DNA of 64,000 bases, from positions 32,001 to 96,000 of the IMG/VR virus record IMGVR_UViG_3300032156_000001; one strand, given 5' to 3'. Below, piece by piece: positions 6,240 through 57,122 of this stretch. The stretch comes from a virus. A program made the translations under genes and the position numbers. Under the pieces are notes generated by a model. That model made no database searches. It was not told where the DNA came from and saw nothing but the letters and a program-made list of their open reading frames with translations. Numbering within the stretch: the first letter of the stretch is position 1; the number at the start of each line of letters is the position of its first letter.

Positions 6240-6257
6240 TTTCCAAGGCGTTGGAAA
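6240..6257. repeat. 18-bp palindrome, copy 1 (one mismatch)
   Basis: TTTCCAAGGCGTTGGAAA, 1 nt after a TAG stop. Confidence 0.85.
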
Positions 6258-6275
6258 CCCGATCAGGAGGGCGTC

Positions 6276-6470
6276 ATGAAGCGGATACTGAAGTGGGCGG
6301 CCGCGCTGCTCCTGCTGAAGCTATGCTTCATGGCGGGCGACATCCGGCGTTACGTGGCGGCGCGGCTGCAGTTGTCCAGGGGGCCGGCAGCTGCGCCGTC
6401 CGTCGGCGCGCCGAGGCCGCCCGAACTCCCGCCGGCCCCGCCGGGGCCGGAGGATCCTGACAGGTTTTGA
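6276..6470 (+). CDS. small protein with N-terminal hydrophobic segment
   Basis: AGGAGG RBS; MKRILKWAAALLLLKLCF. Confidence 0.55.
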   Translation: MKRILKWAAALLLLKLCFMAGDIRRYVAARLQLSRGPAAAPSVGAPRPPELPPAPPGPEDPDRF

Positions 6471-6509
6471 TCCGCGCTGATTGGCGGCGCGGAATGAGAG
6501 GAGGAGCGG

Positions 6510-8102
6510 ATGAACCGGACGCTGTTCAAGGGGAAGGGGTCCAGGGGCGCGCCGCCGGCCGACACGGTCAACGCGGCGGGCGGCGTGGCGTACAAGATGA
6601 CCGACGAGCAGGCGCTGGCCCAGCTGGCCGTGACGGGCTGCCTGTCGGACGTCTTCTACGCCAACGCGGAGATGCAGCTCGAGCAGGTCCTGGAAGTGGC
6701 GGCGAAGGTGCCCGCGGACTACGAGGCGCGGGTGGCGCTGTACGCCTGGGAGAAGGGCTACATGAAGGACATGCCGGCCCTGCTCTTGGCGCACCTGATG
6801 CGGCGCGACGTCGCGATGGCGAAGCGGGTCTTCCCGCGGATCGTCGTGAATGGCAAGATGCTGCGCAACTTCGTCCAGGTCATCCGCAGCGGGGTGACCG
6901 GGCGGAAGTCGATGGCCACGGCGCCGTCGGCGCTCGTGTCGGCGTACCTGGCCAAGCGGACCCCGCTGGAGCTCCTCAGGGACTCGATCGGCGACAAGCC
7001 CGACTTGGCGGACATCATCAGGCTGGCGCATCCCAAGCCGCCGAACGCGCAGTACCGCGCGTTCTACGCCTGGGCGCTCGGCAAGAAGCTGGACGCCGAG
7101 CAGCAGTCGGCGCTCCCGGAGATCGTTGCGGCGTACGACAAGATGTGCAAGACGGGCGTCCTCGATCTGGACGTAGTCACCAAGCTGCCGATTCAGATGC
7201 TCGGCAGCCTCAAGATGACCGACGACGCCTGGAAGAGGACCGCGGTCAACCTTCCCTGGCACGCGCTGCGGATGAACCTCAACGCGCTGGCCAAGCACGG
7301 CGTCTGGCAGGACAAGGAAGTCCTGCTCCGCTGCTGCGACAAACTGCGGGACCTCGAGACGATCAGGAAGGCGCGGGTCTTCCCGTACCAGCTCCTGATC
7401 GCCTACAAGATGACCGGTACGGACGTCCCGAACGAGCTGAGGGAGGCGCTGCAGGACGCCATGGAAGTGGCCGTCGAGAACGTTCCCGAACTGCCCGGCA
7501 GGACGTGGGTGTTCGTGGACGTCTCAGGCTCGATGCGCTCGCCCGTCACGGGAATACGCAAGGGGGCGACCACCGCGGTCCAGTGCGTGGACGTGGCCGC
7601 GCTGATGGCGGCCGCCATCCTCCGCCGGAACCGGGACTCCAACGTGCTGGCGTTCAACGACTCGGTCGTCGAGGGCTCCGACCGGATTGTGAACCGCCGC
7701 GACTCCGTGATGACGATCGCGGAGAAGCTGGCGGGGCGGCCGTCCGGCGGGACGAACGTCAGCGCGCCCATGCGCCAGCTGGTCGACCGGAACGAGCCGG
7801 CCGACACGGTCGTGTACGTGTCGGACAACCAGTCCTGGATCGATACCGCTGCCCATCAGTACGGGATGCAGGAGGCGACGGAGACCAAGCACCTGTGGCA
7901 GACGCTGAAGAAGCGCCGCCCGAAGGCGCGGATGGTCTGCGTCGACTTGCAGCCGTACCCCGACGCGCAGGCGCCGTCGTGCGCCGACACGCTCAATGTC
8001 GGGGGCTTCTCCGACGCCGTGTTCGACCTCATCGCCCTGTTCGCCAAGGGCGAGCTCACTCCCGACCACTGGGTCGGCGAGATCAGGAAAGTCCAACTGT
8101 GA
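6510..8102 (+). CDS. rsr: Ro60-related TROVE/vWA RNA-binding protein (Rsr)
   Basis: NAAGGVAY..LAQLAVTGCLSDVFYA, GYMKDMPALLLA, NGKMLRNFVQVIRSG, FPYQLLIAY; vWA VFVDVSGSM, GGT, VYVSDNQSW. Confidence 0.93.
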   Translation: MNRTLFKGKGSRGAPPADTVNAAGGVAYKMTDEQALAQLAVTGCLSDVFYANAEMQLEQVLEVAAKVPADYEARVALYAWEKGYMKDMPALLLAHLMRRDVAMAKRVFPRIVVNGKMLRNFVQVIRSGVTGRKSMATAPSALVSAYLAKRTPLELLRDSIGDKPDLADIIRLAHPKPPNAQYRAFYAWALGKKLDAEQQSALPEIVAAYDKMCKTGVLDLDVVTKLPIQMLGSLKMTDDAWKRTAVNLPWHALRMNLNALAKHGVWQDKEVLLRCCDKLRDLETIRKARVFPYQLLIAYKMTGTDVPNELREALQDAMEVAVENVPELPGRTWVFVDVSGSMRSPVTGIRKGATTAVQCVDVAALMAAAILRRNRDSNVLAFNDSVVEGSDRIVNRRDSVMTIAEKLAGRPSGGTNVSAPMRQLVDRNEPADTVVYVSDNQSWIDTAAHQYGMQEATETKHLWQTLKKRRPKARMVCVDLQPYPDAQAPSCADTLNVGGFSDAVFDLIALFAKGELTPDHWVGEIRKVQL

Positions 8103-8130
8103 CCACGTCGCTTGTGGGCGGCTCGCGTAC

Positions 8131-8165
8131 AGGGGCGGCAGCCACAACTGCCGCCCCTGCTTTTT
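8131..8165 (+). terminator. Rho-independent terminator after rsr
   Basis: AGGGGCGGCAG-CCACAA-CTGCCGCCCCT then GCTTTTT. Confidence 0.7.
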
Positions 8166-8202
8166 CCCGACTTCGCGGCAGCGACTCGCGGAAAGGGGTG
8201 AC

Positions 8203-55264: not shown

Positions 55265-55282
55265 TGGGGAAAGGAGCATCTG

Positions 55283-55792
55283 ATGGCCAAGACGACCGAG
55301 TGTTTCAAGGTGGTGACGCGCTTTCCCGCCGACGGCGACGCGTACCAGTCGGCCGTCGCGTGGATAAGCCGTTTCACGAAGGTGGAGTACCGCATCGGCC
55401 GCCGGTCCGAGGGGATGGCGTTCGAGCGGCCGGACGGGACTGCGGTGCGGTCCAGGCTGTTCGTCTTCAGGCGGTTGGCAGCCGCCGCCCGGTGGACCCG
55501 CCGGGCCGTCATCAAGACGGGCCGGGGGCCCTATCTCCAGTGGGCCGTCAAGCGGGCCAACGTGGCCATACTTCTCTGCCGCGGCAGCAACGTCAGGCCG
55601 GCGAAGGCGGCGCTACGTGCGTCTGGTCTTGGGATACCGGGCGAGCTGGCTATTTTCTGGGACGATTACAGCCGCAAGAAGTTCATGGACGGCTGGGCCG
55701 CGGCGTGGACCACGGCGGGCTTCGGCAGCGTCGCCGACGCCGTCACGCCGATCAGGAAGATCCCCCAGGAGGACTGGATGCGGCTTAAGTGA
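55283..55792 (+). CDS. hypothetical protein, paralog of 56584-57096
   Basis: VEYRIGRRSEG...SRLFVFRRL. Confidence 0.7.
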   Translation: MAKTTECFKVVTRFPADGDAYQSAVAWISRFTKVEYRIGRRSEGMAFERPDGTAVRSRLFVFRRLAAAARWTRRAVIKTGRGPYLQWAVKRANVAILLCRGSNVRPAKAALRASGLGIPGELAIFWDDYSRKKFMDGWAAAWTTAGFGSVADAVTPIRKIPQEDWMRLK

Positions 55793-55807
55793 GGAAAGGA
55801 GGCGGCC

Positions 55808-56545
55808 ATGCAACTGCGTACCACGCTGACGATAAGGAACGACAGGATGCTGGCCGCCCGCGAGCGGCTGGACCTGACCCAGCACGGGCTGGCTGAGCTG
55901 GCCCGCGTCTCGCAGCAAGATGTTTGCAAGTTCGAGGCCTTGCAGTACGCGACCGTCTACGGCGACGTGCGGGGCAAGGCGGAGCGCATATCCGGGGCGC
56001 TGGACCTGACGCCGGAGGACGTCCTGCCGCCGGGGCACGAGGAAGTGTCGGTGCCCACGCGTTTCGTGCGGGTCGACGAGGTCGCGCTGGACCGGATGCT
56101 GGCCATGAGGGAGCGGTTCATCCTGCCGGCGCCGGACGAGGTGGTCGCCGAACAGGACGACCTGGAGGTGCTGGAAGCCAGGGTGTCGGCCGCCTCCGGG
56201 CGCCTTACGGACCGCGAGCGGCTGGTGCTGAAGCTGCGGTCGGAAGGATTCACGCTGGACGAGGTCGCCGAGCAATTGACGGTCACGCGCGAGCGCGTGC
56301 GGCAGGTGGGGTTCCATGCCATCAGAAGGCTGGGAAAGTTCATCGAGGAGGCGGCGAGGGCGGAAGCCGACCGTACGCCCGGCCTGTCGGACGCGGCTTA
56401 TTCGGCGAAAATGCAGGGAGCGGCCGACATGGCCCGCAGGATAGAGGCGAGGTTCAACGGCGCGTTGGAGGGATACAGGCGGGCGCGCATAGAGCGTTGG
56501 CGCATCGAGCGCAAGAAGAAGCCCGACCATCAGGCCGGGACATGA
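55808..56545 (+). CDS. XRE-HTH plus sigma70 region 4 DNA-binding protein
   Basis: ARERLDLTQHGLAELARVSQQDVCKFE; LTDRERLVLKLR..FTLDEVAEQLTVTRERVRQ. Confidence 0.8.
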   Translation: MQLRTTLTIRNDRMLAARERLDLTQHGLAELARVSQQDVCKFEALQYATVYGDVRGKAERISGALDLTPEDVLPPGHEEVSVPTRFVRVDEVALDRMLAMRERFILPAPDEVVAEQDDLEVLEARVSAASGRLTDRERLVLKLRSEGFTLDEVAEQLTVTRERVRQVGFHAIRRLGKFIEEAARAEADRTPGLSDAAYSAKMQGAADMARRIEARFNGALEGYRRARIERWRIERKKKPDHQAGT

Positions 56546-56583
56546 CCCGGTTCGGTCCCGAACGTGCCGGAAAGGAGATTCTG

Positions 56584-57096
56584 ATGCCAAGGATAAGCGC
56601 GCGTTTCAAGGTGACGGTCCTCGTGCGCGGCCGGCTGCTGTCGGCCGTCGTGCGGGGCCAGAAACGAACGAGGCTGGAGTACCGTATAGGCCGGCGTACC
56701 GAGGGCCGGCGCTTTAAGGGACCGGGCGGCAAGACGGTCGCGTCCAAGATCTTCGTCTTCAAGCGCCTGACCGAGGCGGTCAAGTGGATTAAGCAGTTCC
56801 TCATACTCGGAAACGTGCTGTGCGACTGGGCCGCCCCGGAGCGCCAGATCAGGATACTCAGGTGCAGGGGCAAGAATCTCGTCCTTACGCACTCCGTGCT
56901 GCGGCCCCGCGATGCGGGGAACCGAAAGAGGCTGCTCAGCTTCTGGGCATGGATGAATGCCGGCTCGCCGCGGGACGGTATGTGGGACCTCAAGGTTATA
57001 TCGGTGATTGAGCCGTTCTATGCCGCCGATTCGGTCACGCCGGTAGCGGAGATACCACGGAACCGGTGGCCGGTCGTGGACCCTCTTGGGCGGTAG
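56584..57096 (+). CDS. hypothetical protein, paralog of 55283-55792
   Basis: LEYRIGRRTEG...SKIFVFKRL. Confidence 0.65.
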   Translation: MPRISARFKVTVLVRGRLLSAVVRGQKRTRLEYRIGRRTEGRRFKGPGGKTVASKIFVFKRLTEAVKWIKQFLILGNVLCDWAAPERQIRILRCRGKNLVLTHSVLRPRDAGNRKRLLSFWAWMNAGSPRDGMWDLKVISVIEPFYAADSVTPVAEIPRNRWPVVDPLGR

Positions 57097-57104
57097 GAAC
57101 AGCC

Positions 57105-57122
57105 TTTCCAAGGCCTTGGAAA
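57105..57122. repeat. 18-bp palindrome, copy 5
   Basis: TTTCCAAGGCCTTGGAAA, 8 nt after a TAG stop. Confidence 0.9.

Follow-up and report, generated by a model that had tools for sequence, protein, structure and literature searches.

A phage-specific 18-bp palindrome dispersed at gene boundaries of a large uncultured phage: probably a protein-binding DNA punctuation element

What is an 18-bp palindrome doing, over and over again, between the genes of a large phage that transcribes nearly everything in one direction? We address this question in a 64,000-nucleotide stretch (the window; G000:C1:32001-96000) of a 188,118-bp IMG/VR phage record with 66% GC (G000), where a first-pass annotation made from the sequence alone had singled out a dispersed palindrome at five sites. 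The element is a perfect dyad of two abutting 9-bp half-sites, TTTCCAAGG and CCTTGGAAA. All five copies are present, four as exact matches and one with a single mismatch (Table 1; positions refer to the window unless given as genome). Four were said to lie just past a stop codon, and they do, at distances of 1, 2, 2, and 8 nt; the fifth (51118) lies in frame at about codon 555 of the helicase-ligase open reading frame (ORF) 49455-53495, in the linker between Helicase_C (residues 309 to 412) and the ligase domain (residues 775 to 938), also as described. The annotation's judgment that such a repeat is unlikely to arise by chance holds as well: the window expectation is 0.02 copies, and none of 100 shuffles reached five.

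We counted the motif across the whole record, allowing up to two mismatches, and found 14 copies (nine perfect, four with one mismatch, and one with two) at genome positions 4782, 9428, 24731, 38240, 51283, 74438, 83118, 89105, 96628, 110564, 126438, 147785, 160885, and 181532. Fifteen genomes simulated under a first-order Markov model contained none; the repeat is strongly non-random. The flanking bases weakly extend the dyad to aGG...CCt and are symmetric too. The palindrome is the most repeated sequence among the 14- to 16-mers of the genome and, apart from the Shine-Dalgarno (SD) sequence, the sole k-mer enriched upstream of its genes. It appears to be private to this phage: an exact-match scan found the 18-mer in no other IMG/VR contig, and 596 Gb of cellular genomes gave 32 scattered single hits, at most two per genome, with no host-borne family or regulon. 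Those cellular hits that were inspected looked coding, and a protein match to the phage, itself weak, was seen at only one of the loci. Contigs from two DNA runs were identical to the window and offered no informative variation at the sites, and no RNA run was listed as containing the phage; a metagenome scan returned only distant loci of up to 20 kb with no recurring palindrome visible; the nearest UvsX relative (71% identity) lies on a 2.8-kb contig.

Placement and spacing are both far from random. Under GC3-based gene calls (that is, calls based on third-codon-position G+C), 197 of 210 genes (~94%) run on the plus strand, and non-coding sequence, 12% of the genome, contains 10 of the 14 copies (binomial p = 5.5e-7). 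All 10 lie 1 to 12 nt past a plus-strand stop codon, and for most of them a ribosome-binding site or start codon comes 0 to 25 nt later. Clearly in-frame copies within ORFs number three (one in a Metallophos gene, one in the helicase-ligase ORF, and one in a 1,032-amino-acid [aa] low-complexity ORF), and the start of the gene neighboring copy 181532 is uncertain, which makes the in-ORF total three or four. The 1,032-aa ORF (genome 125243-128341; L008:11743-14841) is Ala/Gly/Pro rich and lies between two RNA polymerase genes; copy 126438 reads VSKALEK within it. Distances between copies range from 4.6 to 23 kb (mean, 13.6 kb; coefficient of variation, 0.43), more even than random placement would give (p ~0.001).

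Three large relatives with syntenic genomes came out of protein searches: G001, of 211 kb and bearing terminal repeats; G002, of 192 kb and 49% GC; and G003, of 163 kb and incomplete. They share 82 to 98 of the 213 G000 proteins at ~25 to 67% identity. The G000 motif is absent from all three within three mismatches, and two of them carry a dyad of their own: TTCCGRTGCCGGCAYCGRAA in G001 (15 copies versus 0.07 in simulations) and TTTCGGAA-N4-TTCCGAAA in G003 (17 copies versus 0.8). Gene junctions account for roughly half of the copies in G001 and 13 of 17 in G003; stop codons often abut these sites, and a ribosome-binding site often follows 1 to 8 nt after. Site density is alike in the three palindrome-bearing phages (one per 9 to 14 kb), and the sites are evenly spaced in the relatives as well (p = 0.015 and 0.04; 6e-5 when combined with G000 by Fisher's method). 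Several regions recur as locations: upstream of uvsX (G000 and G001), the junction after the methyltransferase gene that holds the 42438 copy (G000 and G003), the interval between polymerase genes (G000 and G003), and the vicinity of the end of the plus-strand block (all three). What the lineage conserves is the kind of element and not its sequence. Three search designs found no palindrome family in G002. That genome (L039) has ten copies of CTGATAGCAAAAGAAAACGC (1500-5400, 88556, and 160158), each the 5′ arm of a long hairpin and eight of them within the first 5 kb, which look like an early promoter/stem-loop cassette in place of a palindrome-style signal.

A palindrome that follows stop codons could act in the message as easily as in the DNA, as a hairpin in the polycistronic transcript that serves as a processing site, a 3′-end stabilizer like the repetitive extragenic palindromic (REP) elements, or a translational operator adjoining the ribosome-binding site. 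In G000 the five variant copies carry six substitutions, and these alter only the four central (loop) bases or leave a U.G wobble on the plus strand (A17G twice). The array-embedded copy discussed below is also predicted to fold into an 11-bp hairpin of -13.5 kcal/mol, and the location after stop codons and before ribosome-binding sites resembles that of REP elements and bacterial interspersed mosaic elements, palindromic units that follow stop codons inside operons or at operon ends. The substitutions first suggested a hairpin, but they number only six, and the more variable copies in the relatives argue against it: G003 has no compensatory pairs, with pair 4-17 broken in 7 of 17 copies, and G001 has one, with pair 3-18 broken in 9 of 14 copies and pair 6-15 in 5 of 14, so that the outer pairs are often broken; in neither genome does the paired percentage exceed the mean of the shuffles. 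The bare hairpin is AT rich and weak for a 66% GC genome (-5 kcal/mol), and in-context folding z-scores are about 0. REP elements themselves are 20 to 40 bp long and imperfect, have GTAG/CGTC heads, number in the hundreds, and spread by means of REP-associated tyrosine transposases (RAYT; Y1 transposases), unlike the palindrome here, and the RAYT family PF01797 is absent from G000, G001, and G003. An RNA hairpin thus seems improbable to us. Nor does the dyad resemble an intrinsic terminator, as the weak hairpin is followed by C-rich sequence instead of a U-tract; nine strong GC-rich terminators with T-runs are found elsewhere in the G000 genome. Given the independent variation of the arms, the lack of compensatory change, the weak AT-rich hairpin, and the GC-rich terminators elsewhere, we read the palindrome as a putative DNA site for a dimeric protein, for which independently varying half-sites of an exact dyad are what one would predict. 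Paralogous copies under sequence-specific recognition need not covary, and the missing covariation therefore weakens the RNA reading and does no more than that.

Taking the observed copy number, junction placement, even spacing, separate versions in two relatives, and absence of hairpin covariation together, we tentatively favor, at somewhat below even likelihood, the reading that the dyad is a phage-specific DNA cis-element bound by a dimeric protein and punctuating one-directional transcription. That a protein binds at all, which one it is, and what it does to transcription we infer from those observations. A predicted sequence-specific dimeric protein, probably phage encoded, would read the dyad as double-stranded DNA and, once bound, would punctuate transcription in either orientation at gene or operon boundaries. 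It might end a unit as a roadblock or factor-dependent stop or, alternatively, serve as an operator controlling passage into the next unit.

The same junctions are also where promoters would be expected, and the dyad could be a promoter or core recognition element for the phage multisubunit RNA polymerase and its sigma-like factors, with transcription starting inside the motif or at its end; in a bolder form of this idea, a polymerase working from evenly spaced promoters could draw the genome in or read it in units of ~13 kb. No other non-SD motif recurs upstream of genes, the palindrome's closeness to ribosome-binding sites in all three phages would suit a start site, the gene-proximal arm in G003 is better conserved than the distal arm, and the copy within the guide array could act as an internal promoter. 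Two sigma-like genes adjoin G000 sites. Each relative has its own version, as in T7-like phages, whose promoters are conserved, phage-specific sequences of ~20 bp before ribosome-binding sites with specificity that differs between related phages; those promoters, however, are asymmetric and one-way. Here the palindrome and its flanks are symmetric and directionless, with no conserved directional element upstream or downstream, and would fire antisense into the upstream gene. There is no adjacent downstream start at 42438, where a separate promoter-like element follows, or at 57105, where ~750 nt without a confident gene lead to a strong intrinsic terminator at ~57775-57805. Sites in the relatives also lie at convergent junctions or after minority-strand genes (G001 201067; G003 11049 and 79197), the first two of these at convergent 3′ ends, and at genome positions 147785 and 24731 the SD sequence is within 2 nt of the motif or inside it, leaving little room. 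In G002, a hairpin-plus-T-run terminator and a TTGACA promoter stand upstream of uvsX, where G000 has a palindrome, and a strong terminator follows the orthologue of gene 4527-4769 (genome), another palindrome site in G000. The lack of direction in motif and flanks, the copies without an adjacent downstream gene, the convergent-junction sites, and the G002 terminators lead us to favor a boundary element and to regard a promoter as rather unlikely. No cultured relative exceeds 30% identity in RNA polymerase, and the published paper on phage Arash does not address promoters.

Several observations sit uneasily with a boundary element that punctuates transcription. The G002 terminators occur at two of about five comparable junctions and are suggestive only. 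Copies within ORFs (three or four in G000, about half in G001) would, as roadblocks, truncate messages unless binding were timed, and one copy lies in the middle of a guide array. The outer TTYC...GRAA blocks are 10 bp apart in G000 and 12 bp apart in G001 and G003, a difference not easily squared with one conserved dimer. The close coupling of sites to ribosome-binding sites speaks against a pure boundary role, and within long spacers of G003 it is the downstream start, and not the upstream stop, that the site lies close to, which indicates an association with boundaries generally and not with 3′ ends. Exact positions are mostly not kept between relatives although regions are, no binding protein was identified among the phage candidates assessed, and the even spacing would fit a structural role just as well.

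That structural role would make the dyads architectural sites, loading or anchoring points for a genome-organizing protein of the ParB/KorB/Noc kind or anchors of topological domains or loops, with intergenic placement arising only because gaps tolerate an exact 18-mer. KorB of plasmid RK2, which binds 12 dispersed 13-bp palindromes, is a precedent; dispersed near-identical palindromes are common to the KorB, ParB, and Noc systems, and the known ones are bound by a dimeric helix-turn-helix (HTH) protein. The evener-than-random spacing in all three phages and their similar site density are as this reading would have it, as is the turnover of fine positions with persistence of regional presence, and the in-ORF and array-embedded copies show no less conservation than the intergenic ones. 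Conserved operon sizes, however, could also give even spacing, and the junction bias exceeds mere tolerance, though tolerance predicts some. An earlier version of the idea named the product of 45139-46101 (P0013) as the organizer, and P0013 does have a weak ParB N-domain match, but the absence of its gene from G001 and G003 and the sequence of the site speak against it, as detailed below; we consider an architectural role quite unlikely.

The first-pass annotation had proposed a binding site for a DNA-organizing protein and pointed to the ParB-like gene at 45139 and to parS/Noc-type sites. Its protein-binding DNA site agrees with the perfect dyad, the independent half-sites, and the absence of covariation in the relatives' versions; its ParB link finds little support. 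Residues 46 to 114 of P0013 match PHROG 620 ("ParB-like") weakly (E = 3e-5), and an ILAGNTRVKAA stretch resembles the ParB GERRxRA box. The protein has no Pfam family at E ≤ 0.01 and no sequence relative in PDB, PF02195 is not found in the G000 genome at E ≤ 1, and the gene is missing from G001 and G003 (no tblastn hit in G001 and no phrog_620 hit in either). Homology among the three palindrome systems would therefore make P0013 an improbable partner. KorB operators (OB; TTTAGCSGCTAAA) and Noc-binding sites (NBS; ATTTCCCGGGAAAT) have TTT...AAA outer arms. By inspection against the consensus sequences, the palindrome here shares TTTC...GAAA ends but has a 9-bp half-site with another core, and so it is not parS, NBS, or OB; it differs from the known KorB, ParB, and Noc sites in both sequence and half-site length.

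The best phyletic lead for the binder, a weak one, is the putative product of 23376-23774, which is present in G001 and G003 and absent from palindrome-free G002. A palindrome overlaps the start codon of its homologue in both G001 and G003; G000 has no site there. This protein has no Pfam family, its Atlas neighbors are all hypothetical proteins, and no PDB fold matches its AlphaFold2 model (pLDDT 76) at E ≤ 0.001. A conserved XRE-HTH protein beside uvsX (L006:8044-8649) was unconvincing as the binder, being present in palindrome-free G002 too and having a recognition helix that is near-identical in G000 and G001 (QSTICFRE/QSTISYRE) while their palindromes differ. Other small conserved basic proteins gave no Pfam hits. 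Sites are also flanked by the two sigma-like proteins and by the XRE-sigma4 protein (55808-56545).

Could the palindrome instead be a target of the phage's own guide system? The tandem interspaced guide RNA (TIGR)-Tas systems recognize an 18-bp target, read as 9+9 on opposite strands with a gap of ≤2 bp (PMC12045711). The dyad fits this shape, and the first-pass annotation had speculated that it is the target of a TIGR guide with two identical spacers; one copy also lies inside TIGR array 2, just past the window end and out of that annotation's sight. We now find such self-targeting by the phage's TIGR-TasA system highly improbable. The unit consensus here is GATCGAGnCA-N8-GnGnGnACCA-N8; among 99 parsed units, compared in the tandem-spacer geometry, the best has 4 mismatches in 16 positions, shuffled targets give 3 to 5, and no unit does better than they do. 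The half-site-like spacer that had drawn attention, CTTCCAAGG, matches at 7 of 8 positions, with an estimated ~0.2 such spacers expected by chance; at 59716-59724 this is spacer B, CTTCCAAG, plus the first G of the edge repeat, and it is the only half-site-like spacer. Moreover, G001 and G003 have palindromes but CRISPR-like arrays and no TIGR.

The array-embedded copy itself (genome 96628, 628 nt past the window end) is unusual in form. A 26-bp extended palindrome, AAGGTTTC-CAAGGCCTTG-GAGACCTT, exactly occupies the 8+10+8 slot between two edge repeats, giving a unit 35 nt long (genome 96615-96650; window-equivalent 64615-64650; L007:1115-1150) that keeps its flanking edge repeats, of which the next one is 1 nt short. 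With CAAGGCCTTG instead of the loop repeat GnGnGnACCA, the unit is not a canonical guide, and its two "spacers" are not aimed at adjacent site segments. We read this copy as the dispersed element, accommodated or selected within a 7.5-kb non-coding array, and it is consistent with a need for a site in that interval. The arrays that G001 and G003 have where G000 has TIGR lie at 4360-5930 in G001 (L013; a 29-nt repeat, GTCGCACCCACGCGTATAGGGAAGATTGG, recurring every 61 nt in at least 22 units) and at ~133700-134400 in G003 (L055; period ~61 nt). The top repeat of G001 was rejected as a dispersed motif, since it is this CRISPR array.

Among described systems, the closest published analogue is the 17-bp palindrome TGTTCGGNNNCCGAACA of Cluster O mycobacteriophages, present in >30 copies in ~70 kb (Cresawn et al. 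2015, PMC4351075). It too is a phage-specific dyad with invariant arms, spread genome-wide and often intergenic, with no orientation to transcription; about a third of its copies are inside genes, and neither its function nor its binder has been established (PMC4351075). Cluster O copies occur at ~1 per 2 kb and are denser at one end, whereas those here occur evenly at 1 per 13 kb; the arms are 7+3+7 rather than 9+9, host lineage, phage type, and sequence differ, and a diverged version in each related phage is a feature of the lineage studied here. The resemblance is descriptive, with no sequence relationship. VIPR repeats were dropped as a match because they are GGY/NN repeats and not palindromes. 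The stoperators of Cluster A phages (sites of the L5 gp71 repressor) are 13 bp, asymmetric, and oriented with transcription, belong to temperate phages, and are thought to let a DNA-bound protein halt elongating polymerase at gene boundaries. Like them, the element here occurs as many identical short sites in tiny stop-to-start gaps of co-directional genes (10 of 14 copies); unlike them, it is perfectly palindromic and symmetrically flanked, and we identified neither a repressor nor a lysogeny module in this phage.

Table 1 Coordinates of the palindrome copies and related features in the window
Feature	Position	Strand	Remark
Palindrome, one mismatch (C11G in central GGCC)	6240..6257		1 nt past TAG stop
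Palindrome, perfect	19283..19300		2 nt past TAG of sigma-like gene 18489-19280
Basic 132-aa protein, 23% K+R	23376..23774	+	Weak candidate binder
Palindrome, perfect	42438..42455		2 nt past TGA of SAM (S-adenosylmethionine) methyltransferase gene 41851-42435
Promoter-like element CTAAAAT-N13-GCGTTATTAT	42464..42492	+	Starts 8 nt past 42438 palindrome
ParB-like gene P0013	45139..46101	+	Weak ParB N-domain match only
Palindrome, perfect, in frame	51118..51135		Inside 1346-aa helicase-ligase ORF 49455-53495
XRE-HTH + sigma-70 region 4 protein, 245 aa	55808..56545	+	One gene upstream of 57105; detected in G000 only
Palindrome, perfect	57105..57122		8 nt past TAG of gene 56611-57096
TIGR spacer B CTTCCAAG + first G of edge repeat	59716..59724	+	Chance-level likeness to half-site

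The individual window sites differ in their surroundings. The 6240 copy, just upstream of the Ro60 region, has AGGAGG and ATG 7 to 18 nt downstream, and the 19283 copy is followed 5 nt on by AGGAGG and then by the GTG start of ORF 19317-19763. The element beside the 42438 copy is one of three in the genome with the form cCTAAAAT-N13-GCG(T/G)TAT(T/C)AT, the others being at genome 465-501 (+) and ~184247 (-); two of the three are near the genome ends. Other AT-rich gaps have sigma-70-like TTGACA-N17-TAnnnT boxes, e.g., at genome 181849-181905. ORF 49455-53495 fuses an SNF2/DEAD helicase, an ATP-dependent DNA ligase domain, and a Zn-peptidase-like C terminus; G001 and G003 have shorter helicase genes whose blast matches cover only the first ~490 aa, the helicase part, and the 51118 copy comes soon past the end of these matches. 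Elsewhere in the window, ORF 36742-37131 encodes a stand-alone response-regulator receiver-like protein of 129 aa (PF00072, E = 7e-5), kept in G001 and G003 and not in G002. Inside plus-strand gene 173830-174972, at genome 174380-174570 (L011 ~6260-6450), stand nine perfect tandem copies of a 21-nt unit, GGCGGCGAGGACGACGACGAT (minus strand).

The repeat, then, is not a parS site, a TIGR target, or an intrinsic terminator, and judging from its sequence and distribution its probable role is that of a DNA punctuation element to which a protein binds. A large phage with nearly all of its genes transcribed one way needs some means to divide and time transcription, and the searched literature describes no promoter, terminator, or regulator for this lineage. 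As the only recurrent non-ribosomal signal in the genome, the palindrome offers the most direct way into this regulation: a 24-bp duplex (aGGTTTCCAAGGCCTTGGAAACCt) could be used as bait for the predicted binder, and the diverged versions in the relatives are natural specificity swaps. The even spacing and the TIGR-embedded copy are not predicted by a pure operator model and, if upheld, would point to a genome-organizing role. A more far-reaching proposal, and by our estimate a long shot, is that a 160- to 210-kb uncultured phage lineage maintains 14 to 17 spacing-controlled, lineage-specific palindromes as genome-wide anchors or checkpoints for a previously undescribed DNA-binding protein, for example as regulated barriers that would cut up a 190-kb genome read in a single direction into units timed for transcription or entry. 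If this is true, the anchor system would be strong enough to overwrite a TIGR guide unit and to persist in frame at a gene-fusion site.

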